A stretch of 64,000 nt of DNA from Patescibacteria group bacterium (GCA_041661405.1 JBAZUL010000006.1:1681-65680); one strand, 5' to 3'. Shown: positions 9,825 to 64,000, numbered from the stretch's first letter. A program made the numbers and translations. The notes: a model not told the origin generated them from the sequence alone.

Positions 9825-9895
9825 GAATTAGACTTTAGGGTGTAGCGTTTAGTGTATAGGATAAAGCAGGCAGTATTAACCTGATGGAAATAATT

Positions 9896-9927
9896 CTAAA
9901 CGCTAAACGCTAAACGCTAAACGCTAA
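9896..9927 (+). repeat. Tandem heptamer (CTAAACG) x4 plus partial copy in the ftsA leader
   Basis: Read directly: ctaaacg ctaaacg ctaaacg ctaaacg ctaa. The complementary tagcgtttag lies at 9843..9852. Confidence 0.95.
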
Positions 9928-9943
9928 CCCCTTAAAATTAATT

Positions 9944-46104: not shown

Positions 46105-46108
46105 TTTC

Positions 46109-47707
<1,599 letters not shown>

Positions 47708-47780
47708 TCTCCAATCTGCAATTATCAATCTACAATTGATGATGCGCAAAATGAGAGTAGATTGAAGATTGACTGATTGA

Positions 47781-48209
47781 TTATAGATAGTATCCGATTA
47801 CGCTCACGAAGAATCCGATGGCCGCGCCGGCTAAGACCTGGGCCGGGGTGTGGCCGATTTTTTCCAGAAGCCTCGGATAATTGCGATCCAGTAGATCGTC
47901 TTCTTTTAAATCCCGGACTAAAACGTTTAAGACTTTTCCCTGGTCGCCTAAGTATTGCCGGAGACCGAACGCGTCCCGAATAATAAAAATCGCGAGAAAA
48001 AAACTCAGGGCGAACGACGGCGAATAAAAGCCCTGTTCCAGTCCCATGATGGCGGCGAGCGATACGACAATGGCCGAATGCATGGAGGGCATGCCGGAAT
48101 AAGCGACAAGACTGCGCCAGTTCCATTTGTAGCGGTTGGAGGGGATGAATAATTTCGCCAGCTGGGCGATCGTGCCGGCAATCACCGGAAAGAGAAGGAT
48201 GTTGTACAT
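47781..48209 (-). CDS. Divergent PAP2 (DUF212) family membrane protein
   Basis: YSGMPSMHSA motif and 4 TM helices. This is the only convincing minus-strand gene. Confidence 0.75.
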   Translation of the reverse strand: MYNILLFPVIAGTIAQLAKLFIPSNRYKWNWRSLVAYSGMPSMHSAIVVSLAAIMGLEQGFYSPSFALSFFLAIFIIRDAFGLRQYLGDQGKVLNVLVRDLKEDDLLDRNYPRLLEKIGHTPAQVLAGAAIGFFVSVIGYYL

Positions 48210-48218
48210 AATTATTTA

Positions 48219-48316
48219 GAACTGGCTGGCATTTTAAGTTTTTTCACTGCGGAAATGTCCCGCCCTTCGCGAAGGGCGGGATCCTCGCTTCAAAAACTTA
48301 AAATACCAGCCAGTTC
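48219..48316. repeat. Nested inverted repeat (25-nt outer arms, perfect 24-nt GC-rich inner palindrome)
   Basis: gaactggctggcattttaagttttt (48219..48243) pairs with aaaaacttaaaataccagccagttc (48292..48316) with 1 mismatch. The inner palindrome tcccgcccttcgcgaagggcggga is at 48258..48281. Confidence 0.9.
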
Positions 48317-48377
48317 TTGGGTTAATGTGTCCTTGTATATTATATCATAATATCTGAAAAACACGCCATGGTCTTAA

Positions 48378-48405
48378 TTGAAAATTTTATTAAATCAGCT
48401 ATAAT
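48378..48405 (+). promoter_or_regulatory. Putative promoter TTGAAA-16-TATAAT placed for a leaderless mltG mRNA
   Basis: The -10 at 48400..48405 ends 6 nt before ATG 48412. No SD is possible. Confidence 0.45.
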
Positions 48406-48411
48406 AGAATT

Positions 48412-49467
48412 ATGCTTAAAAAAATATTTTTAATTATTATCATTGCTACCGCCGTATTTTTCGGCCTGGCCTGGAAAAAATTAAATAATCCGGCCGATCC
48501 GGACGGCGCGGACCGGATCTTTACGGTGAGCGCGGGCGAAGGCACCAACCAAATCAGCGACAATTTATTCGGCCAAAAATTGATTAAATCAAAACTGGCT
48601 TTTGAAACTTACGTTTGGGCCCGGGGCTGGGAAGGGACGATTAAGGCCGGAGAGCACACGCTCAGCCCGAAATTAAATATCCGGGAAATCGCGCAATCGC
48701 TCGTCAGCGGCAACACAATTTCCAGCGAAGAAAAAATAATTGTCAAAGAAGGCTGGAATATTGGGGATATTGATAGTTATTTAAGCGAAAAAAACATTTT
48801 AGCTTCCGGTGAGTTTAAGAACGTAGTTGACAAAATCTCCAATTTCCCCGCCCGAGACGGATCCGCCCCGGGCGGACAATCTTCAATTCCCAAATCCTAT
48901 ATTTTTTTAAATGCTCTTTCGGAAAATACCAGCCTTGAAGGTTATTTATTTCCTGACACCTATCGCGTTTTTAAGAATTCTTCGGCCGAAGAAATTGCCG
49001 GGAAAATGCTCGCTAATTTTGACCGGAAGCTTAATCCGGAATTGCGGGTCGAAATTGAAAGACAGGGAAAAAGCGTCCATGAAATAATCACCATGGCTTC
49101 GCTCATAGAAAAGGAAGTCCGGGCGACGGAAGACATGAAAATCGTTTCCGGGATTTTCTGGAACCGGATTAATAACGGCCAGGCGCTCCAGTCCTGCGCC
49201 ACGCTGGCTTATGTTCTTGGGGTCAATAAGCCCCAGTACAGCGAAGCGGACACAAAAATAGATTCCCCTTATAATACTTATCAAAACAAAGGCTTGCCGC
49301 CCGGGCCGATCGCCAATCCCGGAATGAACGCGATTAAGGCGGCGATTTATCCGACTGCTAACGATTATAACTTTTTTCTTACCGCCGAAGTAAACGGCGA
49401 AAGCAAAACCATCTATTCAAGAACTTTTGAAGAGCACGTCCGGAATAAGGGGATTTACCTTAAATAG
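48412..49467 (+). CDS. mltG: Endolytic murein transglycosylase MltG (YceG-like)
   Basis: N-terminal TM helix and YNTYQNKGLPPGPIANPG. Confidence 0.9.
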   Translation: MLKKIFLIIIIATAVFFGLAWKKLNNPADPDGADRIFTVSAGEGTNQISDNLFGQKLIKSKLAFETYVWARGWEGTIKAGEHTLSPKLNIREIAQSLVSGNTISSEEKIIVKEGWNIGDIDSYLSEKNILASGEFKNVVDKISNFPARDGSAPGGQSSIPKSYIFLNALSENTSLEGYLFPDTYRVFKNSSAEEIAGKMLANFDRKLNPELRVEIERQGKSVHEIITMASLIEKEVRATEDMKIVSGIFWNRINNGQALQSCATLAYVLGVNKPQYSEADTKIDSPYNTYQNKGLPPGPIANPGMNAIKAAIYPTANDYNFFLTAEVNGESKTIYSRTFEEHVRNKGIYLK

Positions 49468-49539
49468 GATTTAAGGCATTTCCTATAATCAGGCGGTTCG
49501 GTTTGTGGTTTTAAACCTCCCTATGTTATAATAACGCAT

Positions 49540-51840
49540 ATGAAGATGAAATTTTTCATCGGTTTTTTAATGGTGGCAAGCATCTTCGCGATGCCTGCCG
49601 GTTTTAGCGTTTTTGGCATCCGCGCCGGGAAAGGAAAAGACGTGTTTTTAAAACCGGCAATCGCGGCCGCGGCCGGCGGCAATACGCAACCGGGTAAGGC
49701 CGAATATGAAGACCATGAAATAATCGTTAAATTTAGAAGCGCCGAAAAGCCGGTAAAAGTCTTTTTGGCCCCGGACGAAAAATTGAAAGACGCGATAGAG
49801 GAATATGAAAAAAAACCCGGCGTGGAATACGCCGAATTGAATTATAAATACCGGGCTTCCATCATCCCTTCGGATACTTATTACGGCGAGCAGTGGTATT
49901 TAAAAAAAATAAAAGCTCAGGAGGCCTGGGACCTTAAGCGGGAAAGCCCGAACGTCGTCATCGCGATCATTGATTCCGGAGTCCAGATCAGCCATCCGGA
50001 TTTAAAGGAAAATATTTGGGCCAATAGCGGTGAAATTCCCGCCAACGGGATTGACGATGACCGCGACGGTTATATTGATGATATTAATGGCTGGGATTTT
50101 GTCAATAACGAGGCTGATCCTTCGCCAAAATTTCAGGAAGGCTTTACGGAAGGCGGGATTAACCACGGGACCATTGTCGCGGGAATCGCGGCCGCTTCCG
50201 GAAATAACGCCACGGGCATTGCCGGAGTTACCTGGAGAGCGAAAATAATGCCTTTAAAAGTTTTAGGGGACGCCGGCGAAGGGTCAACCCTGAATGTTGT
50301 CCGCGCTATAGATTACGCGATAAAGAAAGGCGCTAATATCCTTAATTTCAGTTTTGTCGGTTTCGGCTACAGCGAAGCTTTGAATGAAGCTATTGGCCGG
50401 GCGCACGCGGCCGGCCTTATTATCGTGGCGGCGGCCGGTAACGAGTCTGACGATGGAGAAGGGTATTTTTTAGACGACACTCCCATGTATCCGGTCTGCC
50501 ACGACGGTCCGGCCGGTAAAAATTGGATAATCGGCGTGGCGGCGGTTGACGCGATAGACCAAAAATCAAAATTTTCCAGCTACGGATTTAAGTGCATTGA
50601 CATAGCCGCGCCGGGCGAGAGCGTTTTCGGAACAGTGGTTTACGCTCCGGAAAAATCAATCGGCGAAAAGAGCTTTAATAAATATTATGACGGCTATTGG
50701 TCCGGAACATCAGTAGCCGCGCCTCAAGTTTCCGGCGCTATTTCTTTACTGCTTGAAGCCGATTACGAGTTGGGGAGAGACAAAATAATCGCGCTACTGC
50801 TTGATAACAGCGATAACATCAGCCGGGTCAATCCGGCGCACCTCGGCCAGCTTGGCCGGGGGCGGCTGAATGTCCTGAATTCAATGCGAATGGCGCTTTC
50901 GGGAGTGAGCGCTTTTAAAGGCGGAATCATGAGCGTCCCTTTTTCCGGCGCCGAGGCCAGCCTGAAAATTTCCGATAAGGACGGAAAAATAGAAGCTGAT
51001 TTTCCGGTTTTTGATCCGCTTTTCCGCGGCGGGGCGAATGTTACCGGCGGAGACATTGACGGCGACGGAAAAGATGAAATAATCGTTGGCCCTGGATCGG
51101 GCGGCGGACCGCATGTCCGGATTTTTTCCGCTGACGGAAAAGTCAGAGGACAGTTTTTCGCCTATGACAGCCGGTTTAGGGGCGGAGTGAATGTCGCGGC
51201 CGGAGACATTGACGCTGACGGAAAAGATGAAATAATCGTTGGCGCAGGACCGGGCGGCGGACCGCATGTCCGGATTTTTTCCGCTGACGGAAAAGTCAGA
51301 GGACAGTTTTTCGCCTATGACAGCCGGTTTAGGGGCGGAGTGAATGTCGCGGCCGGAGACGTTGACGGCGACGGAAAAGATGAAATAATCGTTGGCGCAG
51401 GACCGGGCGGCGGACCGCATGTCCGGATTTTTTCCGCTGACGGAAAAGTCAGGGGACAGTTTTTCGCCTATGACAGCCGGTTTAGGGGCGGAGTAAGAGT
51501 GGCGGCGGGGAACGTTTATAATTCAGCCCGCAAATTCGGCGACCAGATTATAACCGCTCCCGGTTCCGGACTTATCGCGGAGATTAAAATTTTTGATAAT
51601 AAAGCCGGTCTTTTAAGCCGTTTTAACGCTTTTAACAGTTATTTTCGCGGCGGAATAAGCGTTTCGGCCGGCGACCTGGACGCCGACGGCCGGAGCGAAA
51701 TAATCGCCGGCGCCGGACCGGGCGGCGCGCCCCACATCCGTTCTTTTGATTCGGATGGCAATCTTTTCGGCTCCTATTACGCGCTGGCGGCTGATTTTAA
51801 CAAAGGGGTGAACGCGGGATACGTTAAGATCGGGAAATGA
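49540..51840 (+). CDS. Secreted subtilisin-like (S8) protease with C-terminal FG-GAP/VCBS-like beta-propeller repeats
   Basis: Triad contexts IDSGV, HGTIVAGI and GTSVAAPQVSG. The 51-aa repeats read GDIDGDGKDEIIVGxGxGGGPHVRIFSADGK...FRGGVNVAAGD. Confidence 0.85.
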   Translation: MKMKFFIGFLMVASIFAMPAGFSVFGIRAGKGKDVFLKPAIAAAAGGNTQPGKAEYEDHEIIVKFRSAEKPVKVFLAPDEKLKDAIEEYEKKPGVEYAELNYKYRASIIPSDTYYGEQWYLKKIKAQEAWDLKRESPNVVIAIIDSGVQISHPDLKENIWANSGEIPANGIDDDRDGYIDDINGWDFVNNEADPSPKFQEGFTEGGINHGTIVAGIAAASGNNATGIAGVTWRAKIMPLKVLGDAGEGSTLNVVRAIDYAIKKGANILNFSFVGFGYSEALNEAIGRAHAAGLIIVAAAGNESDDGEGYFLDDTPMYPVCHDGPAGKNWIIGVAAVDAIDQKSKFSSYGFKCIDIAAPGESVFGTVVYAPEKSIGEKSFNKYYDGYWSGTSVAAPQVSGAISLLLEADYELGRDKIIALLLDNSDNISRVNPAHLGQLGRGRLNVLNSMRMALSGVSAFKGGIMSVPFSGAEASLKISDKDGKIEADFPVFDPLFRGGANVTGGDIDGDGKDEIIVGPGSGGGPHVRIFSADGKVRGQFFAYDSRFRGGVNVAAGDIDADGKDEIIVGAGPGGGPHVRIFSADGKVRGQFFAYDSRFRGGVNVAAGDVDGDGKDEIIVGAGPGGGPHVRIFSADGKVRGQFFAYDSRFRGGVRVAAGNVYNSARKFGDQIITAPGSGLIAEIKIFDNKAGLLSRFNAFNSYFRGGISVSAGDLDADGRSEIIAGAGPGGAPHIRSFDSDGNLFGSYYALAADFNKGVNAGYVKIGK
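51049..51507 (+). repeat. Three near-identical 153-bp tandem repeats inside the S8 protease gene
   Basis: Units start at 51049, 51202 and 51355 (ggagacattgac...). They differ at only a handful of positions. Confidence 0.9.
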
Positions 51841-51884
51841 ATTTTTAAATTATAAATTTTAATTAAATTTTAAATTATCTGCAT

Positions 51885-52898
51885 ATGTCCCATCGCGCGA
51901 TATTCGGCAAGAAAAATATTTTAGTGGCCGGCGGCGCCGGCTTTATCGGCTCCCATCTTTGCGAAGAGCTTATTAAAAACGCCAAGGTTATCTGCCTGGA
52001 TAATTTTTCGACCGGGGATGAAAGGAACATTGACCATCTTTTATCCAATCCGGATTTTGAATTTGTCCGCCACGACATTACCGAACCGCTTGAGCTTGAA
52101 AGCCTGCCGGAATTGGAGAAATTCAGGATTAAATTCCAGGGCGTCCAGGAAATTTACAACTTGGCTTGCCCGGTATCGCCGAAGAATTTCGCGGAAAACA
52201 AGCTGGCCATGCTGATTGCCAACTCCTACGGGACGAAAAACCTCCTGGATCTCGCGATAAAGCACGGCGCGAAATTCATCCAGTTTTCCTCATCCGTCGT
52301 TTACGGCCAAAGCCGGGGATCCGGGGAAAAAATCAGCGAGGACGACCTTGGACAGGTGGACGCGGTCTCTTCCCGCAGTTCCCATGAAGAAGGAAAAAGG
52401 TTTTCCGAGACGCTAGTCGCCAATTACCGCGAAATCCACGGCCTGGATACAAAAATCATCCGGGTGTTCCGGACTTACGGCCCGAGAATGAGATTAAACG
52501 ACGGGCACATGATTCCCGATTTTATCGTTAACGCCTTGGACGGAAAAGACCTCGTCATCCACGGCGGCGAAGATTTTGCTTCTTCGTTCTGCTATGTTTC
52601 CGACTTGGTTGACGGGGTGATTAAGATTGCCGAATCCGGGATGAACGTGCCGGTTAACCTTGGATCGGAGATTGAAGTTAAGTTCCGCGAAGTGGCGGAA
52701 AAAATTATCAAGGCGCTTGATTCGGGTTCCAAAATAACTTATGATGATTCAATTAAATACCTTACTCCGGCCTGCCTGCCGGATACTTCGCGCGCCCGCC
52801 AGGAGTTCGGCTGGCTGCCGGTCGTTACGCTTAACAAAGGCATTGAAAAAACCATTGATGATTTAAGGGCGAGCAAAGGACTTTTGCGGGCGGGATAA
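51885..52898 (+). CDS. UDP-glucuronate decarboxylase-like extended SDR (NAD-dependent epimerase/dehydratase family)
   Basis: VAGGAGFIGSHLCEEL Rossmann motif. Close overall resemblance to UXS/RmlB-type enzymes. Confidence 0.75.
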   Translation: MSHRAIFGKKNILVAGGAGFIGSHLCEELIKNAKVICLDNFSTGDERNIDHLLSNPDFEFVRHDITEPLELESLPELEKFRIKFQGVQEIYNLACPVSPKNFAENKLAMLIANSYGTKNLLDLAIKHGAKFIQFSSSVVYGQSRGSGEKISEDDLGQVDAVSSRSSHEEGKRFSETLVANYREIHGLDTKIIRVFRTYGPRMRLNDGHMIPDFIVNALDGKDLVIHGGEDFASSFCYVSDLVDGVIKIAESGMNVPVNLGSEIEVKFREVAEKIIKALDSGSKITYDDSIKYLTPACLPDTSRARQEFGWLPVVTLNKGIEKTIDDLRASKGLLRAG

Positions 52899-52913
52899 GC
52901 TCATGATTAATCT

Positions 52914-53576
52914 ATGAAAGTATTTTGTGTCATCCCCGCTTTTAACGAAGAGGAAACAATCGTGGAAGTAATAAAATCCGTCAAGCCGTTCGCGGACGGA
53001 GTGATTATCGTTGACGACGGTTCGGTTGACAAGACTTTTGAGCTGGCTAAGGCTCAGGGGGTTATCGCGCTTAAACATGTAATTAACCGCGGCCAGGGCG
53101 CCGCCTTAGAGACCGGCAACCGATACGCTATAAAAAAAGGCGCGGACATTATCGTCCATTTTGACGCCGACGGGCAATTTTCAGCCGAAGAAATAAATGA
53201 GCTTGCTTCTCTGATAAAATCCGGGCAGGCGGATATTGTTTTTGGTTCGCGGTTTTTAGGCCGGGAATCCAACATGCCGGCTTTTAAAAAACTGATTATA
53301 ATGCCTTTGGCCAGGTTTATGAACCGGATATTATTCGGGGCGGATTTAAGCGATCCCCAATGCGGCTTCCGGGCGATGAGTGCCAAAGCCGTCCGGGAAA
53401 TCCGGATAAAAAACGACGGTATGGCTCACTGCTCGGAAATAATCGGCAAAGCTTTTCGCTCCGGCCTGAAAATAAAAGAAGCGCCGATAACGGTCGTTTA
53501 CCGCGAGTTCGGCCAGAACATGTCCGGCGGAATAAGGATTATAAAGGATTTGATATATTCAAAATTCATCGGATGA
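52914..53576 (+). CDS. Family-2 glycosyltransferase (polyprenyl-phosphate sugar transferase-like)
   Basis: VIPAFNEEETI, IIVDDGSVDKT and FDADGQF. Confidence 0.8.
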   Translation: MKVFCVIPAFNEEETIVEVIKSVKPFADGVIIVDDGSVDKTFELAKAQGVIALKHVINRGQGAALETGNRYAIKKGADIIVHFDADGQFSAEEINELASLIKSGQADIVFGSRFLGRESNMPAFKKLIIMPLARFMNRILFGADLSDPQCGFRAMSAKAVREIRIKNDGMAHCSEIIGKAFRSGLKIKEAPITVVYREFGQNMSGGIRIIKDLIYSKFIG

Positions 53577-53580
53577 AAAT

Positions 53581-53907
53581 ATGATCCAACAAATTTTAGC
53601 GATTGCCGTCATCCTTTTTTTCATCGCGCGGCTTTATTGGCAGAGGAAAAAGGACGAGATAAGCCGGGCGGAGCTTTCATTCTGGCTGGCTTTTTTTCTT
53701 TTAGCCGGGCTGGCGATTGTTTTCATAAAATATATTGACGAGTTCGTCGCCGGTCTCGGATTTTCCGCCACCGGCATCAACGTCCTTTTTTACGCCGCCG
53801 TGGTTCTTCTTTTTTACGTTGTTTTCCGCCTGCGCCTCCGCCAGGAAAAAATAGAAAGGAACATAACGAAAATCGTCCGCGAAATCGCGCTGAAGGGGAA
53901 GGAGTAG
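53581..53907 (+). CDS. Small membrane protein (DUF2304-like)
   Basis: 108 aa, 3 TM helices, in the typical position after a GT2 gene. Confidence 0.55.
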   Translation: MIQQILAIAVILFFIARLYWQRKKDEISRAELSFWLAFFLLAGLAIVFIKYIDEFVAGLGFSATGINVLFYAAVVLLFYVVFRLRLRQEKIERNITKIVREIALKGKE

Positions 53908-53942
53908 GGGGTTGAATATTACCTGGTTTCAGTAAAAGCGCT

Positions 53943-54611
53943 ATGAAAAACACCATCAAAAACCAAATAATCATATATGAAGGCGATGATGGACAATCTC
54001 ATGTAGAGGTTAGGTTTGAAGGTGAAACAGCTTGGCTTTCGCAACGACAAATGTCGGAGCTTTTTGATTGTACTCCGGAAAATATATTATTGCATCTTAA
54101 AAATGTTTTTGAAAGCGGTGAATTAGATGAAAGGGCAACTGCTAAGGAATCCTTAGTAGTTCAAAAAGAAGGAAATAGAGCCGTAAATAGAACCATAAAA
54201 TTTTATAATTTGGATGTCATAATTTCCATAGGTTACCGCATAAATTCTTTGCGTGGGACGCAATTTCGAATTTGGGCAACGCAAAAAATCAAAGAGTATA
54301 TTATCAAAGGTTTTACGATCGATTCGGATCGATTAAAAAATCTTGGCGGCGGGAATTACTGGAAAGAATTGCTTGACGAGATTCGAGATATCCGTAGCAG
54401 TGAAAAGGTGCTTTATCGCCAAGTGCTGGATTTGTATGCGACCGCTATTGATTACGATCCGCAAGCCAGCGAGTCTTTTGAGTTTTTTAAAACCGTTCAA
54501 AACAAACTTCATTTTGCGGCTCACGGGCATACGGCGGCAGAAGTTATTGTATTGGCCGGGCAGGGGAGGGAAAAGTTCAGCCAGGCGGTTCATCGCAGAA
54601 TCGCGCTGTAG
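53943..54611 (+). pseudogene. RhuM-family protein, 3'-truncated
   Basis: IIIYEGDDGQSHVEVRFEGETAWLSQRQMSELF...FRIWAT...HGHTAAEVI matches RhuM. After that point the sequence turns unrelated and stops, about 100 aa short of the length I recall for the family. Confidence 0.6.
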
Positions 54612-54642
54612 CTGATTTTTCAACGGCTCGCAGGAAACGGCC

Positions 54643-54666
54643 GATGAGCCGTTGAAGGGAGCGAGT
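54643..54666 (+). repeat. 24-nt junction motif GATGAGCCGTTGAAGGGAGCGAGT, copy A
   Basis: Identical to 55599..55622. There are 3 differences from 59485..59508. Confidence 0.9.
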
Positions 54667-54890
54667 TTCTAAAAGCAGCTTGTTTTTCGGACGTTGTTTT
54701 GCTACTATTTTAATAGTAGAGGACGGGCTGGCTAGACGCCTTATATGGAATAAAACTCCCGCCGGAGTTTCCCGCTTTTTTATCTTGGCCGGCTCGCCAA
54801 TGAAAAAGCTGATTTTATTTTGTAAATATTCGGGGTATTTCACTTCGCTGAATCATTTCAGGGATATGAGATCGTCCCAAAAAGGGAGTT

Positions 54891-55244
54891 ATGAAATTAG
54901 TGGATAGAAAAATCCCGGTTCACGAGCTTAAAGAAATGGCCTCAAAGATGTACGGAGATCTGGTTAAGGCCGTAGTTGACATTGAAAAAGAAATTATGTC
55001 AGTAGACGCGGAGCTCCATGCCGACGAAGAAAAGTTTTTACTGGAGAACGGGTCAAAGCAGGAAAATTTGTGGGGAATTAATTTGTATCCGGATACTAAA
55101 GGGGAAAATTTTTTAGAATACGACTCCATGATAAATCTGCGGCCGTCTCAGGGCAACCGCAGCCGGGGAGTGGATGATGAAAAGATAAGGGAAAGGATAC
55201 GGGAGGTCGTTCATAAACTAATTGAAAATGGCATACCAGCATAA
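54891..55244 (+). CDS. Conserved hypothetical (resembles DUF5674-type proteins, from memory)
   Basis: 117-aa ORF with blocks VDAELHADEE...LWGINLYPD...INLRPSQGNRSRG. Confidence 0.45.
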   Translation: MKLVDRKIPVHELKEMASKMYGDLVKAVVDIEKEIMSVDAELHADEEKFLLENGSKQENLWGINLYPDTKGENFLEYDSMINLRPSQGNRSRGVDDEKIRERIREVVHKLIENGIPA

Positions 55245-55560
55245 AAAACAAGCCGGAGGAGAGTGGAGCAAGTCTTCCTTTTTTTCCCAGATGGCCAATA
55301 TCGGTTCGGAAGTCGGGAGGGCCATTAACTGGCGCCGCAAAGAAAACAAAGCCTACGCCCGAGGCGCGTTTGAACGGTCTTTGGAATTATTTGATCTGAC
55401 CGCGGCTGATCCGAGGAATATTGGGCGCTTAAAAGAAATTCTTCGAGCCCGGGAGGCTTGGGTGGATTTTTTCGCCTATGACAATGAATATAATTCCACG
55501 GCCGGGCAATGGGAAAAATATTTTTTAGCCTTTAATTACGCGGCGAACTTGAACCGTTAA
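55228..55560 (+). CDS. Hypothetical helical protein
   Basis: ATG 55228 overlaps the upstream ORF by 17 nt. The last 23 nt are shared with ORF 59162..59446. Confidence 0.4.
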   Translation: MAYQHKKQAGGEWSKSSFFSQMANIGSEVGRAINWRRKENKAYARGAFERSLELFDLTAADPRNIGRLKEILRAREAWVDFFAYDNEYNSTAGQWEKYFLAFNYAANLNR

Positions 55561-55855
55561 TTTAAATCCGGCCGGTTTACAAAATAAAGGCGGGGCTTGA
55601 TGAGCCGTTGAAGGGAGCGAGTCTTTGATAGTATTATTGCCGGGTTTCAGTAAAAGCGCTATAATAAAACAAAAAAACTTAATACAGCTTAATTAATTCA
55701 TAGCCCTAAGGAGGTATGAAAAACAATTTTTTAAAGCGTTGCGGGAACATGCCCCGCAAGGCAAAGCATGCCATTAAAATCAATCTGTCCATTCCCGGAA
55801 AAGTTTTACTGACCCTCGCTATCGCGGGGTTTTTTGTTTTTGGGGGAGTTTTTGG
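55538..55855 (+). repeat. Segmental duplication, copy 1 (junction repeat + promoter + SD + first ~47 codons of lipase-like gene)
   Basis: Aligns to 59424..59761 with about 8 substitutions and one 20-bp indel. Contains TTGCCG-17-TATAAT (55637..55665) and the aaggagg SD. Confidence 0.9.
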
Positions 55856-57977
55856 TTTAGCGATTTTCTGCGTCCCCGAAGCCCGGGCCGAAGGCATAAT
55901 GATTTCAGAGGACACGGTCTGGGAAAAAGGCGAAGTCCGGGTAGTTGACGACCCCATGAACGGCCTCGCGATTATGCCCGGAGTTAAGCTCACGATCAAT
56001 CCGGGCGTGATTATTAAGCTCGGAAAAAATACGCCGATTCTCGCCATGGGCGAGCTGGATATTAAGGGAAGCGAAACCGAGCCGGTGATAATCACCTCGC
56101 TGAAAAATGATACCGTTGGCGGCGATACCAACGGAGACGGAACGGCGACCGCCCCGATGCCGGGCGACTGGTACGGGATTATGGCTAACGGTCCGGACTC
56201 TAAAATCAATATTGACTACGCCGAAATAAGCTATGGCGGCGGGTATGAGGATATGACGGTCACCCTTATTGCCGCGTTTCAGATCAGCGGTTTTAATATA
56301 GCCCATAGCTCGTTTATCCATGACGCGGGAGTGATTTTTATCAACGAAGTTCCTGACCCTAAAATAAATTATAGCAATATTTACCTTGAGGAAGACTATT
56401 GCCGGGAAGAAGAAGGGGAAAGAATCTGCGAACACCTGTCGCTATTTTTCTTAGGATCCGAGCCGCTGGACGCTATAAATAATTATTGGGGTCACGCGGA
56501 AGGCCCGTCGCTGGAAGGGGCGGAGGACGCTAAAGGCATATTTATTTCCGGTAACGTCAATTACGAGCCATTTTTGACCGAACCCTGGGAGCCGGAGGTT
56601 GATGATGTTTTAGATCCTGTCATTATTGTTCCGGGGATTATGGGGAGTTGGAATGTTTCGGGCAGATGGCAGATTGATCCGATTTTCCATACTTATGATA
56701 ATTTAATGGAAGCGCTGATCGCGGCCGGGTACAAGGAAGATTCTTTACTTGAACCGGAACCGAATCTGTTTACTTTTTCTTACAATTGGCGGAATGACAA
56801 CAATGCTACGGCCGGCCTGCTCAGAGAGAAAATAGAGGAAGTAAAAAACCTGACCGGCGCGGATAAAGTTGATTTAGTCGCTCACTCAATGGGCGGCCTT
56901 ATCGCGCGTTCATATATTCAGGGGAGCGATTATCAGAATGACGTGGATCAACTTGTGTTTTTAGGAACGCCGCATTTGGGTTCGCTTGAAAGCTATTTGA
57001 AGTATGAAGGGGGAGACGGTTTTTTTAGCACAGGTGAAAAATTGACTAAATATTTATTCCAAATTGAAGCCGCCACCCAAGGCTACCTCAATTTAACCGA
57101 CTATATCCGGGCAGAAGTATTGTCAGTAGAGCAGTTACTGCCGGTTTTTAATTATCTAAAAGACAAACAGCCGGATAATTCCTGGCAATCGCGGCCATAC
57201 CCGCTAAATTATCCGCAGAATAATTTTCTGGAAAATTTAAACAGCCAAAGCGGGGTTGATTTACTGAAAGAGCGGGTGAATATAACCAATATAGTCAGCG
57301 ATTTAGGAAGCGAAAGCACCCTGAATTACCTCCGGGTAGTACCCGATCCTGATCCGGGCGACAACAAATGGCAAAGCGGCTATCCGGAAAATCTTGAGAG
57401 TAGCCTTGACAGCCTGGAAAAAGGCAACGGCGACAGCACAGTGCCGCTACTGAGCGCCGATAGTTTAAGCGGAGTAGAAATAATAGAAACTAATAATTCG
57501 GATCATGAAAACCTGCCGACAATCATGCAGAAAGAGATCATAAAAGTTTTAACCGGAAAAACGCCGGATAACTATTTTAACAGTAAAATCACTTCAACCA
57601 TAAAAAAATGGTTTTTTTTCCGGGTCTATTCTCCGGTTGATTTCGTAATTATCGCTCCGGACGGAAGAAAGATCGGCAAGGACATAAACAACAACGCGGA
57701 AATAAACGAAATTTCCGACGCGTTTTACAGCGGTTTTAGCGGCGAAGCCGAGTTTGTTCTGATTCCTAATCCCGAAGACGGAGAATATAAAGTGAGTGTC
57801 CAAGGCGTTGATAACGGCGGGCAGTACAAACTCTCGGCCAGTCTGATTAACGATGAAAAAGAAAGCGACAAAGAATTCAGCGGGACTATTACTGCCAATC
57901 AAATTCAGGAATTTAACCTGAATTACGCCGAAGAAGCCGAAGACCCGATCAGCGAGCTGGATGGAACCCGAAGATGA
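55716..57977 (+). CDS. Secreted/anchored lipase-like alpha/beta hydrolase (LCAT/PGAP1-like), N-terminal beta-helix-like region
   Basis: Signal anchor, DPVIIVPGIMGSW, and the nucleophile elbow VAHSMGGLIAR. Confidence 0.7.
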   Translation: MKNNFLKRCGNMPRKAKHAIKINLSIPGKVLLTLAIAGFFVFGGVFGLAIFCVPEARAEGIMISEDTVWEKGEVRVVDDPMNGLAIMPGVKLTINPGVIIKLGKNTPILAMGELDIKGSETEPVIITSLKNDTVGGDTNGDGTATAPMPGDWYGIMANGPDSKINIDYAEISYGGGYEDMTVTLIAAFQISGFNIAHSSFIHDAGVIFINEVPDPKINYSNIYLEEDYCREEEGERICEHLSLFFLGSEPLDAINNYWGHAEGPSLEGAEDAKGIFISGNVNYEPFLTEPWEPEVDDVLDPVIIVPGIMGSWNVSGRWQIDPIFHTYDNLMEALIAAGYKEDSLLEPEPNLFTFSYNWRNDNNATAGLLREKIEEVKNLTGADKVDLVAHSMGGLIARSYIQGSDYQNDVDQLVFLGTPHLGSLESYLKYEGGDGFFSTGEKLTKYLFQIEAATQGYLNLTDYIRAEVLSVEQLLPVFNYLKDKQPDNSWQSRPYPLNYPQNNFLENLNSQSGVDLLKERVNITNIVSDLGSESTLNYLRVVPDPDPGDNKWQSGYPENLESSLDSLEKGNGDSTVPLLSADSLSGVEIIETNNSDHENLPTIMQKEIIKVLTGKTPDNYFNSKITSTIKKWFFFRVYSPVDFVIIAPDGRKIGKDINNNAEINEISDAFYSGFSGEAEFVLIPNPEDGEYKVSVQGVDNGGQYKLSASLINDEKESDKEFSGTITANQIQEFNLNYAEEAEDPISELDGTRR

Positions 57978-58644
57978 TGTCCCTCCGGTTATCGCGATTA
58001 GCGCTCCGGCCGATAACGCCGAGTATTTGCATAGCGGAAAGCTGGTAGTTGATTACGTTGTCTCTGACGATTTTTCAGGCATCGCATCATCAACGATTAA
58101 ACTGGACGGCGGGGAAATATTTAGTTCAGAAAATTCAGGACAGTCAACAACGACCATTGATTTATTTTACCTAAAAACCGGAGAGCATACGATGGAAATC
58201 ATCGCCGAAGACAAGGCCAGGAATATTGCCAGTTCAACGGTGAATTTTAGAATCATTGCCACCCCGGACAGCATGATTTCGGACATAAAAAGGCTCTATG
58301 ATTTAAGGTGGATAACTGACCGGACAATATCAAAGATTTTAATCAAAGAGATTGAGGAAATAAAATGGCGGCTCAGGCTGACGGACGAAGCGAAAAAGCT
58401 CATTTTAAAAGCCATTGAGAAAACCGAAAAAAACCGTTTTCTTCCGAAAAAACTCAAGGCTAAGATGATTGAGAAATTTAATGAGGAACTTTTGCGGCTT
58501 GACCGGGAAAGTGAAAAGAAACTCAATATTGTTTATGATCGGATTGAGCGGTCTTTGGGCAAGTATATAAAGAGAGGGTTAATTAACCAGGAGGCTTATG
58601 ATATAATATTGGATAGCGTTAATTTTTTAAGAAATAATTTGTAA
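57961..58644 (+). CDS. C-terminal module of the lipase-like protein, encoded in the +1 frame (split gene or frameshift)
   Basis: Colinear with the last ~220 aa of the 1293-aa paralogue: DLFYLKTGEHTMEIIAEDKARN vs DLFYEKTGEHRINIIAEDNAGN, and both end ...VNFLRNNL / VNYLRDNL. Confidence 0.6.
   Translation: MEPEDDVPPVIAISAPADNAEYLHSGKLVVDYVVSDDFSGIASSTIKLDGGEIFSSENSGQSTTTIDLFYLKTGEHTMEIIAEDKARNIASSTVNFRIIATPDSMISDIKRLYDLRWITDRTISKILIKEIEEIKWRLRLTDEAKKLILKAIEKTEKNRFLPKKLKAKMIEKFNEELLRLDRESEKKLNIVYDRIERSLGKYIKRGLINQEAYDIILDSVNFLRNNL
58351..58398 (+). repeat. 48-bp perfect direct repeat, copy 1 (inside CDS)
   Basis: attgaggaaataaaatggcggctcaggctgacggacgaagcgaaaaag is identical to 59032..59079. Confidence 0.95.
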
Positions 58645-58648
58645 ATGT

Positions 58649-59044
58649 ATGACTAATAATAAACGAAGCAAAAAAATTGTTAATCTACTGCTATCTTTTA
58701 GCGGAGCAATAGTATTTTCATTAATGTTTTTATTTGTATTTAATAATTTTTACGTTAGCCAATTTAACCCGGTGATGTTTAATAGTATGTTTTCATTGTG
58801 GAGTTACGGGTTTGACATAAAGTTAAATAGTTTTATCTTTGCATATTCTTTCTTCCTCCCCCTGTTTATAACGATATTCGTTTCCAAAAGGCAATGGCTG
58901 GCTTGGTTGATTCTGATTTTTATTCCTTTTACCATGGTTTTAGTTGGCGGCCAAAAGCATTTGCTCTGGTTTTTTATCTTTACTGTCGCCGGCGGTTTGA
59001 TTGGCTGGCTGATAAAAATGATGATTGAGAAATTGAGGAAATAA
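58649..59044 (+). CDS. Hypothetical polytopic membrane protein (AT-rich)
   Basis: 131 aa, 4 hydrophobic helices. The 3' end runs into repeat copy 2. Confidence 0.4.
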   Translation: MTNNKRSKKIVNLLLSFSGAIVFSLMFLFVFNNFYVSQFNPVMFNSMFSLWSYGFDIKLNSFIFAYSFFLPLFITIFVSKRQWLAWLILIFIPFTMVLVGGQKHLLWFFIFTVAGGLIGWLIKMMIEKLRK

Positions 59045-59079
59045 AATGGCGGCTCAGGCTGACGGACGAAGCGAAAAAG
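59032..59079 (+). repeat. 48-bp perfect direct repeat, copy 2 (mostly non-coding)
   Basis: Identical to 58351..58398. Confidence 0.95.
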
Positions 59080-59161
59080 AGGATTAAGGCATAATTCCGG
59101 TAATTCGGCGCATCGGTCAAAGGTTAAGAAATGTGATAATTAAATCACTTAAAATAATTCC

Positions 59162-59446
59162 ATGCATAACAAAAAAGGGGGCAGTAAACAGGTTGCGTTT
59201 TTTGAGGGCCGGAGTATCCGGCGGATTTGGGATGGAAAAAAGGAGAAGTGGTATTTTTCGGTGATTGATGTTATTTCTGCTCTTACCGAGCAGATAGATT
59301 TTAAAAAAGCGCAAAGCTATTGGACTACCCTAAAAAGCCGTTTAAAACAGGAAGGGAATGAGTCTGTCACAAAATGTGACAAACTGAAAATGCAATCCTC
59401 CGATGGTAAATATTACGCTACTGACGCGGCGAACTTGAACCGTTAA
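59162..59446 (+). CDS. BRO-N / prophage-antirepressor-like domain protein (short)
   Basis: FFEGRSIRRIWDGKKEKWYFSVIDVISALT resembles the Bro-N domain. Confidence 0.5.
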   Translation: MHNKKGGSKQVAFFEGRSIRRIWDGKKEKWYFSVIDVISALTEQIDFKKAQSYWTTLKSRLKQEGNESVTKCDKLKMQSSDGKYYATDAANLNR

Positions 59447-59761
59447 TTTAAATCCGGCCGGTTTACAAAATAAAGGCGGGGCTTAATGAGCCGTTGAGCG
59501 GAGCGAGTCTTTGATAGTATTATTGCCGAGTTTCAGTAAAAGCGGTATAATAAAACAAAAAAACTTAATACAGCTTAATTAACCCGCCTGCCGGCCGGCA
59601 GGTTCATAACCCTAAGGAGGTATGAAAATTAATTTTTTAAAGCGTTGCGGGAACATGCCCCGCAAGGCAAAGCATGCCATTAAAATCAATCTGTCCATTC
59701 CCGGAAAAGTTTTACTGACCCTCGCTATCGCGGGGTTTTTTGTTTTCGGGGGAGTTTTTGG
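59424..59761 (+). repeat. Segmental duplication, copy 2
   Basis: See copy 1. Promoter TTGCCG-17-TATAAT at 59523..59551. Confidence 0.9.
59583..59602. repeat. 20-bp GC-rich insertion containing a perfect 16-bp palindrome CCTGCCGGCCGGCAGG
   Basis: Present here but absent at the orthologous point of copy 1 (between 55692 and 55693): cagcttaattaa|ttcata. Confidence 0.9.
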
Positions 59762-62700
59762 CGCGCAGCCGGTTCTGGCTGATTCATCGCCGGACAATCT
59801 CTGGCATTTTAATGAATGTTCGGGCGCTTCCGCGGCTTCATTCCAGGGAACTGACAACCTGAATTTGGGAGGTAGCGCCTGGAGCGTTGGCAAATGGAAC
59901 TGCTCCATGGAATTATTTTGGTCTTACGCTCCCATGAAAGTTAATTTTAATGAGCCGCTATCGGCCGGCGATCTTACTGTGAGTGCGTGGTTCCGTTTTC
60001 CCCATGATAATTCCCGCTTTTCTTTCCGGCTGGTTGACGCGTCCGGCAAAGCGGCCAAGCTGTCAATTGACCAATATTATGCTGACGCGGAAAACCTTAC
60101 CGGTTCTTTTCTCCGTCTGCCGCCGGTCTGGCCGGCTGACGACGGCTGGCATCAGGCGGTTTTTTCAATCAATTCGTCCGAAGGGCAATGGAGAATCTAC
60201 TTTGATGGCTCAGAAGCTATTAGTTCAAGCCTTGAAGATTATGATTTTTCCCAATTTTCCCGCCTTGAAATCGGGACTAACAATAATTACACCCTGGTTG
60301 ACGAAGTGGCTGTCTGGCGCCGAACTCTGAGCGGAACGGAAATAAATGAAATTTACGGCTTAAACCAGGAAATGCCTCCGGCCGCTCCGATTATTCCAGC
60401 CGCGGAAAAAACAATGATTCATCTTTGGCAGTTTGACGAAGGAGACGGGAGCGCAATCCATGACGCCGCCGGAGAAATCGATTTAAGCCAAAACGCTGCT
60501 TTTGGCGAAGGAAAATGGGGAACAGGACTTTTACAATCTTGGCCTGCCGACCAGAGGATTGACGCCAATTTTAATGAACCGGTAAACGCCAGGGACTTGA
60601 GCCTTGAATTTTGGTTTAAAAATTCAAGCCACCCGAACGAAGGCCGCGGGTCAATATATCTCTCCGGCACGGGAGGAAATTTCGGCATCCGGCCGTCCCC
60701 ATCCGCCCTAACCGTCTATACGCCTTACGGCAATAAGAATTTTGGCGCCCGACCAGAACTGGCGGATAATAACTGGCATTATTTTACTCTGGTTTTTAAT
60801 TCTCATGATTACCGCTATGATTTTTACATAGACGGCCAAAATATTTATTCCGAAGAAAGCCTTCCGCTCGCGAATTCGGTTTTTGACCAAATTCACATCC
60901 GCGGCGAAAATTTTCCCTATTCTATTGACGAACTCGCCATCTTTCAAGGCGCTCTTTCGCAGGATGAAATACGGGAATATTACAACTCAAACGAGCCCCG
61001 AAAAAAATCCACCCTTGATCCGGTGATTCTTGTTCCGGGGATAATGGGGAGCTATCTTGTTAGGGAAAATACTTACGAAGAAATTTGGCCGAGAATTTCC
61101 ACCATGCTCATTGATCCCTGGGACGGGTATCTTAATGAGCTGGCAATGGGCGCGGACGGGATGCCTAATCCAGAGAGCGGCAATTTACAGGCCGCTGATA
61201 TTTTCCGTAATTTGTACGGAGAAGATTTTTTTGCCGGTTTGATAAACGAATTGACAGCGAGCGGCTATGAAGAGGGCGTGAATTTATTTGTTTTTCCCTA
61301 CGATTGGCGGCTGGATCTAAATATTATCGCCGGTGATGACAGCAGACTGCCGCGAACAGAAACTTTAAAAGAAAAAGTAGAGTCAGTAATAACCCAGACC
61401 GGGGCTGAAAAAGTTGACATTGTAGCTCATAGTATGGGCGGCTTAATTGCCAAACTCTACATGCAAAAATACGGCGGCGATAAAGTTAATAAGTTTGTTG
61501 ACATAGCGACGCCGCACTTAGGTTCAGCATCCGCGCTAAGAACATTAATGTATGGAGATGATTTGGGATTTAGAATTAAGAAGCTATCAATTCTAAACCT
61601 CAATGAAATAAAATCCATTTCACAAAACGTCCCTTCAATTTATCAGCTGCTACCAAGTCAAAACTATTTTGACGATAGTGACCCCAATTATGCCTATTAC
61701 ATCTACGACATGTTTGATTTTGATAATAATGGTGTTAAGGGGCGGCTGGATTATGGCCAATCCATTGAATTTCAGACTAATAGCGGCCGCAATCTGAATT
61801 TACTGCCCTTAAATAATCAACTGCATCAGGAAATTGACAATTTTAATTCCGAATCTTTTAGAATAAAAACTTATAATATCGTCGGTTGCGGCCGGCCGAC
61901 GATCGGGCAGATATATATCCTCAATAAGGAAAAATCCGGTGGATATGAATATGGTTTAAAATACATAAACGGCGATGGAACAGTGCCTTTGCGAAGCGCC
62001 GAATATTTATCCGCAACCAACGTTTACTATAGTACCGGAGCTGACCACCCGTTTTTGCCGAGTTTTAGCGGAGTTAGGCAATTGGTCTCATCAATATTGC
62101 ATGGAGAAGAAGGTAGCTTTAGCTTCTCACAGCATGCCAATATCCGGACGGACACCAACAGTTGCGCTCTAAACGGAACACAGATTAGCTTTCATAGCCC
62201 GATTGATCTGCATGTTTATGATGATAACGATAATCACACCGGACCGGACGAGAATGGCGATATTGAATTAAATATTGACGGCGCGGCTTACGATATAATT
62301 GACGAAAACAAATTTATTTTTCTTCCGTCCGGACATGATTATAAAGTCGCCGGAAAGGCGAGCGATGCCGGGAATTTTAATGCGAGAGTCCAGAAAATAG
62401 AAAACGGAGAAACAGTATCAACCGCTTATTTTAACGAAGTGCCGCTCAGCTTAGTGAGTACGGCCGTGAAAATAGATATTTCCGATGAACAAGCCAGCTA
62501 TGCGCTTAAAATAGATCAGGACGGAGACGAAGTTTTTGAAGAAAGCGAACAGCCCGACTCAATACTGAACTCCGAAGAATCGCTGGATTTTATCCCTCCG
62601 GATACCGCGATAAGCTTAGAGGGGGTAAGAGGAAATGAAAGCTGGTTCGTCTCCGAAGTCGCAGTAGATCTCGCCGCCGAAGACGATAATTCCGGAGTAT

Positions 62701-63503
62701 TGAAAACCGAATACAGTCTGGATAACGGCCAAAGCTGGACAGAATACCAAAGCCAATTTACGCTGTCGCTGGAAGGGGAAAACAAGTTAATCTATTCTTC
62801 AGCCGACAGGGCCGGAAATAGGGAAGCGGAAAAGGAAATTGTGATAAAAATTGACAAAACCGGGCCGGAAATACTCGTATTGGTTCCGGACGAGATCAGT
62901 CATGACAAAAAATTTAGTATTGAATATCTGGCTGATGATAATATCTCCAGCATTGCCACTGACACGATCGAGATATATTTGGACGAAAAATTGCTATCAT
63001 CCGGAACGATTGATCTATTTTACGAAAAAACTGGCGAACATCGGATAAATATAATCGCCGAAGACAATGCCGGAAACATAACCGAGGAAATAAAAATTTT
63101 CAGCGTAATTACCGACATTCAGGGAACGATTTCGGACGTAAACCGGGCTTATCTTGAAAAAATGCTAAACGAAAAAGCTAAAAAAGAACTGGTAAAAGAC
63201 CTAAAAAAAATAGAGGATTATATTAAAAAATACGGCAAAAGAGAAGAAAAAAGAGATAAAAGACAGGAGAATATATTAAATAGGTGCGTTAAGAAAAAGG
63301 GGAAAACCTGGTGCGAAAATAAGCTGGGAAAATTGTTTACGAAAATCAATTTCCGGCTGAATGTAATCCATGAAAAAATCGTAAAGTTGCAATACAGCCT
63401 GATCTTAAAAGAGCTTGAACTTTACCGAAAAAAGGGCTGGGTGACGGAAACAGGGTATGGTATAATTAAGGAGGACGTTAATTATTTAAGGGATAATTTA
63501 TAA
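59622..63503 (+). CDS. Large secreted protein: 2x LamG-like jelly-roll + LCAT/PGAP1-like lipase + Ig-like modules + helical tail
   Basis: LamG-like signatures LWHFNE...VDEVAVWRRTLSGTEINEIY and LWQFDE...IDELAIFQGALSQDEIREYY. Lipase signatures DPVILVPGIMGSY and VAHSMGGLIAKLY. Confidence 0.8.
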   Translation: MKINFLKRCGNMPRKAKHAIKINLSIPGKVLLTLAIAGFFVFGGVFGAQPVLADSSPDNLWHFNECSGASAASFQGTDNLNLGGSAWSVGKWNCSMELFWSYAPMKVNFNEPLSAGDLTVSAWFRFPHDNSRFSFRLVDASGKAAKLSIDQYYADAENLTGSFLRLPPVWPADDGWHQAVFSINSSEGQWRIYFDGSEAISSSLEDYDFSQFSRLEIGTNNNYTLVDEVAVWRRTLSGTEINEIYGLNQEMPPAAPIIPAAEKTMIHLWQFDEGDGSAIHDAAGEIDLSQNAAFGEGKWGTGLLQSWPADQRIDANFNEPVNARDLSLEFWFKNSSHPNEGRGSIYLSGTGGNFGIRPSPSALTVYTPYGNKNFGARPELADNNWHYFTLVFNSHDYRYDFYIDGQNIYSEESLPLANSVFDQIHIRGENFPYSIDELAIFQGALSQDEIREYYNSNEPRKKSTLDPVILVPGIMGSYLVRENTYEEIWPRISTMLIDPWDGYLNELAMGADGMPNPESGNLQAADIFRNLYGEDFFAGLINELTASGYEEGVNLFVFPYDWRLDLNIIAGDDSRLPRTETLKEKVESVITQTGAEKVDIVAHSMGGLIAKLYMQKYGGDKVNKFVDIATPHLGSASALRTLMYGDDLGFRIKKLSILNLNEIKSISQNVPSIYQLLPSQNYFDDSDPNYAYYIYDMFDFDNNGVKGRLDYGQSIEFQTNSGRNLNLLPLNNQLHQEIDNFNSESFRIKTYNIVGCGRPTIGQIYILNKEKSGGYEYGLKYINGDGTVPLRSAEYLSATNVYYSTGADHPFLPSFSGVRQLVSSILHGEEGSFSFSQHANIRTDTNSCALNGTQISFHSPIDLHVYDDNDNHTGPDENGDIELNIDGAAYDIIDENKFIFLPSGHDYKVAGKASDAGNFNARVQKIENGETVSTAYFNEVPLSLVSTAVKIDISDEQASYALKIDQDGDEVFEESEQPDSILNSEESLDFIPPDTAISLEGVRGNESWFVSEVAVDLAAEDDNSGVLKTEYSLDNGQSWTEYQSQFTLSLEGENKLIYSSADRAGNREAEKEIVIKIDKTGPEILVLVPDEISHDKKFSIEYLADDNISSIATDTIEIYLDEKLLSSGTIDLFYEKTGEHRINIIAEDNAGNITEEIKIFSVITDIQGTISDVNRAYLEKMLNEKAKKELVKDLKKIEDYIKKYGKREEKRDKRQENILNRCVKKKGKTWCENKLGKLFTKINFRLNVIHEKIVKLQYSLILKELELYRKKGWVTETGYGIIKEDVNYLRDNL

Positions 63504-63530
63504 TTTAGCCAACTAATTAAGAAAAATTTT

Positions 63531-63851
63531 ATGAAACTAATAAAAGAAATAAGTAATAAAAATGCAAAAATTAATTATTCGTTAATCAGCCTATTGTTTT
63601 GGGTTGTTGTAGTAATTTTGCCGTATAAGTATTTCTATTTATTAAGTGATAATGGCAGCTTGTTAATAGATTATATGATTGTGATTCCTCCCGTAATGGT
63701 GTTTTTAGCTTATGCTTTAATAAAACCAAAAGAAAAATTAAACAGAAATTATTTTTTAATAGTAGGCTTAATAATGCCTTTAATTTTTCATTATGCTTAT
63801 TTAGCCTTTATGATTATGGAAGCAATAAAAGGTTTTCGTCCTTCTCTATAA
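63531..63851 (+). CDS. Hypothetical membrane protein (AT-rich)
   Basis: 106 aa, 3 hydrophobic helices. Positionally analogous to 58649..59044. Confidence 0.35.
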   Translation: MKLIKEISNKNAKINYSLISLLFWVVVVILPYKYFYLLSDNGSLLIDYMIVIPPVMVFLAYALIKPKEKLNRNYFLIVGLIMPLIFHYAYLAFMIMEAIKGFRPSL

Positions 63852-63866
63852 AGTGATGAAAAAATT

Positions 63867-64000
63867 ATGAAATTAAATCTATTCAATCGTTTGAGCCTGT
63901 TTATTTTATTCTCTTTATTTTTTAGTGTTATTTTAATTCTTATTATCGAAAAAACAAAATTTTCACATATAAATTTAGCGCCATTTGGCGGGTACAGCTG
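63867..64000 (+). CDS. Hypothetical membrane protein, 3' end outside window
   Basis: ATG 63867 opens a frame (MKLNLFNRLSLFILFSLFF...) that runs to the window edge. Confidence 0.25.
   Translation, partial: MKLNLFNRLSLFILFSLFFSVILILIIEKTKFSHINLAPFGGYS

Follow-up and report, generated by a model that had tools for sequence, protein, structure and literature searches.

Two lipase genes headed by a near-identical block

We analysed a stretch of 64,000 nucleotides from a Patescibacteria group bacterium (GCA_041661405.1, JBAZUL010000006.1:1681-65680), hereafter the window, with positions counted from its first letter. It contains two adjacent genes for putative secreted lipases, lipase A (753 aa, 55716..57977) and lipase B (1293 aa, 59622..63503), both on the + strand. 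The two genes begin with a shared block of sequence, the 5' module, that runs from the end of the gene upstream through a promoter-like site and a leader into the predicted signal peptide, and their remaining sequence is far more diverged.

The two copies of the module form direct repeats at 55533..55855 (copy A) and 59419..59761 (copy B), both on the + strand, which differ by 11 substitutions in 323 aligned nt (96.6% identity; MAFFT, repeat finder and blastn, with a blastn E-value of 6e-142). Their longest exact run is 116 nt, and the block is the longest dispersed repeat of the window. The single indel between them is 20 bp, CCCGCCTGCCGGCCGGCAGG, present in copy B only (59583-59602). The original prediction had counted about 8 substitutions and one 20-bp indel in 55538-55855; the indel stands, and the number of substitutions in that interval is 9. 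Each copy consists of the last 28 nt of an upstream open reading frame (ORF), an intergenic part of 155 nt in copy A, to which copy B adds the 20-bp palindrome, and codons 1-47 of the lipase gene, in which 46 of the 47 residues match. The upstream ORFs (55231-55560 and 59162-59446) are not homologous, and each ends in AANLNR* inside the block, as predicted. The similarity also stops as abruptly as had been claimed: in the 60 nt beyond the block, identity is 35% at the left edge and 27% at the right, the level of random sequence, against 97% inside, so that the tract has sharp boundaries.

Behind the module, the two genes encode different N-terminal domains joined to related catalytic domains. 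Lipase A has a predicted signal peptide, a beta-helix-like N-domain, an alpha/beta hydrolase domain of the LCAT/Lipase_2 type and a beta-sandwich, whereas lipase B has a predicted signal peptide, two LamG domains, an LCAT-like hydrolase domain, OmpL47/Ig-like domains and a coiled-coil tail of what we call the B type. The LamG domains of the original prediction correspond to two Laminin_G_3 stretches. Its beta-helix-like region is plausible: the modelled N-domain of lipase A is confidently all-beta (pLDDT 89), and the top Foldseek matches in the PDB are all beta-helix proteins, none of them significant (E of at least 0.019, TM of at most 0.4).

Both lipases score above the Pfam thresholds for LCAT (44.5 and 76.7 bits, cut-off 21), Lipase_2 (44.3 and 23.8 bits, cut-off 20.3) and PGAP1. 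Each combines this class 2 lipase/LCAT-like profile with a nucleophile elbow, AHSMGG, and both also show a GDxTVP aspartate motif and a DH histidine motif. Their best sequence matches in the PDB are LipA-type lipases of Bacillus (7e-07 to 5e-05), over only about 60 residues around the nucleophile. A and B are predicted to have lipase activity. As the original prediction stated, homology between the two proteins resumes, at a much greater divergence, in the lipase and C-terminal parts: they are 29% identical over 503 aa of the lipase part (BLASTP), or 43% over the aligned catalytic-domain columns, and 34% identical in the tail, which for A is a separate ORF.

The lipases belong to a large family, with 934 members at E <= 1e-5 among 8000 scored candidates and Patescibacteria alone among the matches listed. 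Across the family, the N-terminal domain varies (beta-helix, LamG, Kelch, DUF1080 and others) on a similar lipase domain and tail. Exact-sequence look-ups for the 753-aa lipase A and for its orthologue P0008 found none on record.

Lipase A is shortened by a frameshift. A 4-nt tandem duplication, TGGATGGA, at 57958..57965 (+ strand) shifts the frame, which stops at 57977, and creates the ATG (57961) of a detached tail ORF of 227 aa (57961..58644, + strand) with an Ig-like domain and a coiled-coil tail ending in NFLRNNL. The orthologous sequence at this site reads GAG TTA GAG CCA GAA, and each orthologue of lipase A, at 957-971 aa, is encoded by one uninterrupted ORF. An independent contig, L015 from ENA, has the duplication too. 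The tail is followed by a membrane ORF of 131 aa (58649..59044, + strand) that accompanies A-type lipases and is homologous to a 127-aa ORF after the orthologue P0003 (contig L010).

Recovery of both copies in other assemblies

Other assemblies recover each copy of the module with its own variants. JGI contig L002 (metagenome 3300014208) corresponds to window positions 53954-56443 with three mismatches, all in a RhuM fragment described below, and ENA contig L015 corresponds to 45596-59383 and is identical except for a tandem repeat in a protease gene. Copy A and both of its flanks are spanned by these two contigs and reproduced at 100%. Copy B is reproduced from 59500 onward in JGI contig L001 and ENA contig L014, which match 59500-64000 at 100% and carry the 20-bp hairpin as well as the five substitutions private to copy B to the right of 59499.

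Between these contigs lie 116 nt (59384-59499), the left junction of copy B, that are found in the window's own assembly alone, because L015 ends at 59383 and L001 and L014 both start at 59500. These contig ends would fit an assembler that had made the repeat, or had joined the two lipase loci through it. However, five differences from copy A fall inside the uncovered stretch (59421, 59423, 59485, 59498 and 59499), so that its sequence was not supplied by copy A, and similar sharing is seen inside long contigs of another genome (GCA_028703305.1, described below). With copy A reproduced together with its flanks and copy B reproduced from 59500 onward, a collapsed or duplicated repeat, which the original prediction had named as the observation that would overturn it, is largely contradicted, and we consider an assembly artefact extremely unlikely. 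The breaks at 59383 and 59500 would fit an assembly graph that branches because of variants in the population. Assemblies break at or near the shared block elsewhere too: in the metagenome-assembled genome (MAG) GCA_964408925.1, both lipase contigs (L012 and L013) start 56-121 nt 5' of the ATG.

Separate histories of the module and the lipase domain

The original prediction proposed that separate trees be built for the 5' module and the lipase domain. We compared the window genes (winA and winB) with P0002 (GCA_A) and P0126 (GCA_B2), both from MAG GCA_964408925.1; with P0122 (L004_B), from ENA/JGI contigs L004 and L005; and with P0003 (L010_A) and P0123 (L006_B), both from MAG SO_2017_GW1_125. 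Module identity was measured on the DNA of the leader and the first 47 codons.

The module is most similar between genes of one genome. The two window copies are 96% identical, as against 76% between winA and its orthologue P0002 and 80% between winB and its orthologue P0122. Likewise, the two modules of GCA_964408925.1 are 88% identical to each other, and those of SO_2017_GW1_125 are 72% identical to each other and 61-67% identical to all others. The lipase domain gives the opposite picture, with 79-82% identity among A-types, 89-94% among B-types and 37-45% between the types. In neighbour-joining trees, the module groups by genome (winA with winB; P0002 with P0126 and P0122; P0003 with P0123), each group with 100% bootstrap support, and the lipase domain groups by gene type, A-types and B-types again at 100%.

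Concerted evolution has been defined by Wang and Chen (2018; PMC6053082) as the condition in which paralogues within a species are closer to each other than to their orthologues, and we use their definition and test here. A module that sorts by genome on genes whose lipase domains sort by type is, by this definition, concerted evolution restricted to a segment. The cases in their survey are whole genes of core pathways (PMC6053082); here they are only terminal modules, in a secreted, fast-evolving family.

Exchange has also affected the 3' end. The B-type lipases P0122 and P0126 carry an A-type coiled-coil tail, 87-89% identical to that of P0002 and 26-28% identical to that of lipase B, behind an Ig domain that remains B-type. 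In one sister lineage, then, B-type genes have acquired the 3' tail of the A type. Another genome, GCA_028703305.1, has two paralogues inside contigs of 164 kb and 70 kb that share 109 nt at 95% identity (41 nt upstream and 22 codons), then have unrelated N-domains, and then share 2.4 kb at 87%.

These patterns agree with the original prediction, in which recombination or gene conversion keeps the expression-and-export module alike between genes as their passenger domains diverge. We think it likely that the two copies in the window are the product of homologous recombination, that is, gene conversion in the broad sense, between old paralogues of the secreted lipase family. The similar leader and Sec-type signal peptide at the start of family members, and the similar tail at the end, would provide the homology for exchange between paralogues. 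Exchange at the gene ends would cause the block of promoter, leader and signal peptide to evolve in concert within each genome, and the N-terminal passenger domain (beta-helix, LamG, Kelch or other) and the catalytic core would keep separate histories. The block would give both genes a common sigma-70-like promoter, an unusual leader and an export signal, and lipases A and B should therefore be co-expressed and exported by one route.

History of the locus

The genes to the left of the lipases (44.7-53.9 kb) encode two iPGM proteins, DUF212, YceG, an S8 protease, an epimerase, GT2 and DUF2304, and are collinear with relatives (contigs L006 and L004) at 80-90% amino-acid identity. The relatives have, directly after DUF2304, a promoter, a small coiled-coil ORF and then the B-type lipase. 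In the window, DUF2304 is followed by 5.5 kb of additional sequence, absent from the same site in the relatives, that consists of a RhuM fragment (profile positions 1-141 of 252), a DUF5674 gene, an ORF that we call ORF112, the lipase A unit with its membrane ORF, and a truncated phage-type ORF. In SO_2017_GW1_125 the A unit lies at a different locus.

The two edges of the repeat differ in where they are native. ORF112, the gene upstream of copy A (55231..55560, + strand), is a full-length member of a widespread family of about 110 aa. Its 957 homologues align up to query residues 106-109 of 109 and end in FNYAAALQR, FNYAANIHK and similar sequences, so the C-terminus FNYAANLNR is native to the family. 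At copy B, the same left edge truncates the phage-type gene (Bro/antirepressor-like; 59162..59446, + strand), which matches positions 6-85 of 274 of phrog_15286 (E = 6.6e-21) and takes its last 8 codons from the module; in a phage collection, the matches of this ORF were all unannotated and from gut phages. Copy A therefore has the left edge in its native setting, and at copy B that edge is derived. The right edge points the other way. The residues GGVFG are common to the B orthologues P0122 and P0123, at identities down to 58%, and absent from the A orthologues P0002, P0003 and P0008. In addition, a hairpin resembling the palindrome of copy B, CCTGCCGACAGGCAGG, occurs at the same place 5' of the B-type P0126 in GCA_964408925.1. 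For the right part of the module, the native side is thus B and the derived side A.

Two histories would fit this arrangement: one duplicative insertion, or at least two exchanges in opposite directions. Lipase B ancestrally stood directly after the DUF2304 gene. It is now preceded by the 5.5-kb block of gene remnants carrying lipase A, and the 323/343-bp block stands at the head of both genes. A single duplicative insertion would give the order module, A body through truncated phage gene, module, B.

Such an insertion could be the whole explanation. One duplicative insertion or translocation would have moved the A unit before B and duplicated the 343-bp block, and the 3% difference between the copies would be later, ordinary divergence; the event could have been a template switch during replication, or a circular intermediate could have integrated. 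The sequence has the layout that this predicts, module-insert-module, with two junctions, a homologous one in the signal peptide and an illegitimate one in the truncated phage gene, and the insert is missing at the same site in the relatives. The region is also rich in scars, among them the RhuM fragment, a 52-nt repeat, partial copies of the module and the frameshift of lipase A. No clean microhomology was found at the illegitimate junction (59410-59424), where there is only an ambiguous ATTACGC/ACGC motif. However, one insertion in the window explains neither why modules also group by genome in two further genomes, which have the two genes on separate contigs, nor why the 3' tail was exchanged. 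As the sole explanation we find it unlikely; it is compatible with recurrent recombination between paralogues as the latest event of that process.

Several points weigh against recurrent recombination. No recombinant or chimeric molecules were directly observed, the evidence being assembled contigs, and the left junction of copy B is seen in one assembly. The arrangement in the window, taken alone, is explicable by one event with no continuing homogenisation. The assignment of genes to genomes relies on metagenome binning for GCA_964408925.1 and SO_2017_GW1_125, and the group formed by the L006 and L010 genes has long branches. Finally, part of the nucleotide conservation, namely the leader 21-mer and the GCGGGGTTTTTTGTTTT stretch, is common to all genomes, which indicates purifying selection, not conversion, for that part of the module.

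Pieces of a partial third copy lie to the left of the lipases, both on the + strand. A promoter segment at 53917..53950 is 88% identical to copy A and stands directly after DUF2304, where the relatives have the promoter of the B operon; a segment from just 5' of the promoter, at 54643..54675 (88%), follows the RhuM fragment. The two pieces flank the truncated RhuM in permuted order, with the promoter piece on the left and the upstream piece on the right. The piece at 54643-54675 is preceded by a hairpin with a 9-bp stem, CAACGGCTC...GAGCCGTTG; in the module, only the right arm of this hairpin is retained. Integron-like or att-site origins were considered for this layout and left unsupported, there being three copies and no integrase.

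A 52-nt repeat (98% identity) links 58347-58398, in the coiled-coil tail of lipase A (KEIEEIKWRLRLTDEAKK), with 59028-59079, which runs across the stop codon of the 131-aa membrane ORF; the repeat resembles a scar left by a further recombination event involving a lipase tail. The small coiled-coil ORF of the relatives (79-143 aa) precedes both A-type and B-type lipases with near-identical ends (...AHDRFEERIGVLEEKTGISPVSV*), at 3627-4058 in L004, at 9596-9952 in L006, and at 9655-9975 and 13449-13688 in L010. The conserved 5' block of the relatives also extends into the upstream gene, and this small ORF has been lost ahead of both lipases in the window.

Elements of the module

Each copy of the module contains a sigma-70-like promoter candidate, TTGCCG-17-TATAAT, about 50 nt 5' of the ATG (55637..55665 in copy A and 59523..59551 in copy B, + strand). 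It agrees with the consensus at 10 of 12 positions; the promoter of the original prediction is in both copies a putative one, a consensus match only. The 20-bp indel of copy B is a perfect palindrome, CCTGCCGGCCGGCAGG, just 5' of the leader element (59583..59602).

The leader element, TTCATAGCCCTAAGGAGGTATG in copy A (55697..55718, + strand) and TTCATAACCCTAAGGAGGTATG in copy B (59603..59624, + strand), is near-invariant. The block contains the string TTCATA(G/A)CCCTAAGGAGGTATG, and TCATA(A/G)CCCTAAGGAGGTATG hardly varies among seven lipase genes from three or four genomes, the related genes being on contigs L004, L006, L010, L012 and L013. The block also holds an AAGGAGG motif, and in both copies and in five related genes TAAGGAGGT ends 1 nt before the ATG. 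The Shine-Dalgarno (SD) sequence of the original prediction therefore exists as a motif but lacks the canonical spacing of 5-10 nt, in a window where only 5 of the 44 gene starts checked have an SD-like motif and 39 have none. Initiation at the leader ATG is forced in relatives that have no second methionine, such as P0123. A more speculative reading is that the invariant leader TCATAACCCTAAGGAGGTATG, a perfect anti-16S 9-mer that ends 1 nt short of the start codon, controls the translation of these lipase genes as a dedicated element. RNAalifold predicts a small hairpin that could mask both the SD-like motif and the start codon; there is no covariation in it, as all pairs are invariant, which gives no support either way.

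Among GTDB representatives, which exclude the window's own genome, MAG SO_2017_GW1_125 alone has the exact 21-mer of the leader, one chance match in Paenibacillus aside, and the 21-mer is absent from IMG/VR. A hammerhead-like GATGAG motif was suspected in the upstream half of the module and did not correspond to any RNA in Rfam, which over 53.5-60.0 kb, with permissive filters, gave only a chance snoRNA match.

The coding half of the module specifies a predicted export-type N-terminus. Residues 1-29 have a net charge of +8, with a strongly basic n-region followed by a hydrophobic core, and the best 15-aa hydropathy window scores 2.3-2.5. Rule-based signal-peptidase sites fall just past the shared block, at ARA|EG in A and VLA|DS in B, which makes a cleavable Sec signal peptide more likely than an anchor. 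The signal anchor of the original prediction is thus better read as a putative cleavable signal peptide, though lipase A, with its long h-region of about 25 aa, may have a signal anchor as the alternative. The codons for LAIAGFFVF also form a terminator-like hairpin, CCTCGCTATCGCGGGG, followed by a run of T (55814..55839, + strand; 59720-59745 in copy B). Its stem is invariant in all seven related genes and may be a by-product of the conserved peptide.

A promoter, leader and signal peptide placed ahead of different passenger domains could also point to programmed cassette switching, or to a mobile promoter or element resembling a miniature inverted-repeat transposable element, moved by dedicated machinery. 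The rampant shuffling of N-domains across the family and the permuted partial copies of the upstream half around the RhuM fragment are in keeping with such machinery. The module itself argues otherwise. Only two full copies occur in the window and in one metagenome scan, both on homologous genes, and the orthologues have native signal peptides homologous to the coding half. The repeat finder detected no terminal inverted repeats flanking the block, and Rfam had no match. Both copies head complete genes, each with a promoter-like site, leader and start codon; promoterless silent cassettes are absent. There is no recombinase, invertase or integrase among the neighbouring genes (iPGM, YceG, S8 protease, epimerase, GT2, DUF2304, RhuM fragment, DUF5674, ORF112, LTD, sortase and SecA). 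We therefore regard dedicated machinery as very unlikely, and the likeness to cassette switching noted in the original prediction, for two complete expression units with neither recombinase nor silent cassette nearby, is a resemblance only.

Comparison with known systems

The vsp, vlp and vsa lipoprotein families of Mycoplasma have a conserved block of 5' untranslated region and signal peptide before divergent mature regions, in several members per genome. They switch by site-specific inversion or promoter slippage, with many members in one cluster. In contrast, the lipases described here are two copies that lack a recombinase and a lipobox and show no evidence of on/off switching. As enzymes they resemble Bacillus subtilis LipA and other class 2 lipases, as well as LCAT- and PGAP1-like hydrolases, in the AHSMG nucleophile motif and the Pfam Lipase_2, LCAT and PGAP1 matches. 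They differ from these enzymes in their length of 750-1300 aa and in their predicted swapped beta-helix or LamG N-domains, Ig-like domains and coiled-coil tail.

The closest parallel that we found is in Helicobacter pylori, where paralogous outer-membrane proteins (babA/babB, homA/homB and sabA/sabB) share one terminal segment that is near-identical within a strain and have a divergent middle, and where intragenomic recombination between loci gives rise to chimeras (PMC3960876). In the lipases, the module goes by genome and the core by gene type, and 3' tails are exchanged as well. The concerted segment of bab and hom is the 3' end, whereas that of the window lipases is the 5' end with promoter and leader. 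The H. pylori proteins are beta-barrel adhesins, and those considered here are Patescibacteria enzymes, predicted lipases. For the lipases, recombinant chimeras are putative, and the two genes are adjacent in the window.

Patescibacteria, or the candidate phyla radiation, are thought to depend on hosts for lipids. A large family of secreted lipases with interchangeable N-domains is therefore a plausible part of a lipid-acquiring interface with the host. If the gene ends recombine freely between paralogues, this would offer a simple route to new domain combinations and would explain the fragmentation of these loci in metagenome assemblies. A more speculative extension, which we consider unlikely, is that the conserved 5' and 3' ends serve as homology arms for swapping N-terminal target-binding domains onto a lipid-harvesting enzyme in Patescibacteria episymbionts, and that natural populations hold alternative arrangements at this locus, reflected in the breaks at 59383 and 59500. 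Segmental concerted evolution is a textbook process, and what is new here is the under-studied lineage and protein family, so that the surprise is modest. Existing reads from one groundwater and landfill site make the question of recombination directly testable at this locus.

Other features of the region

Downstream of the B-type lipase (5151-8300 of contig L014; 15197-22516 of L006) are genes for an LTD domain protein, Pur_ac_phosph_N and a sortase, to which the cluster of the relatives adds Peptidase_M73 and an S26 signal peptidase. This conserved cluster hints at a cell-surface assembly locus.

Two further repeats lie to the left of the lipases. The tandem iPGM paralogues share a 51-nt tract at 98% identity (45550-45600 and 47117-47167), which is possibly a small gene-conversion tract; their other common tracts are 71-82% identical. 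The S8 protease gene contains three 153-nt tandem units of FG-GAP repeats (51028-51516) that are 90-93% identical. Contig L015 has one unit fewer, encoding a protease of 715 aa against 766 aa in the window, which reflects either variation in copy number or assembly collapse.

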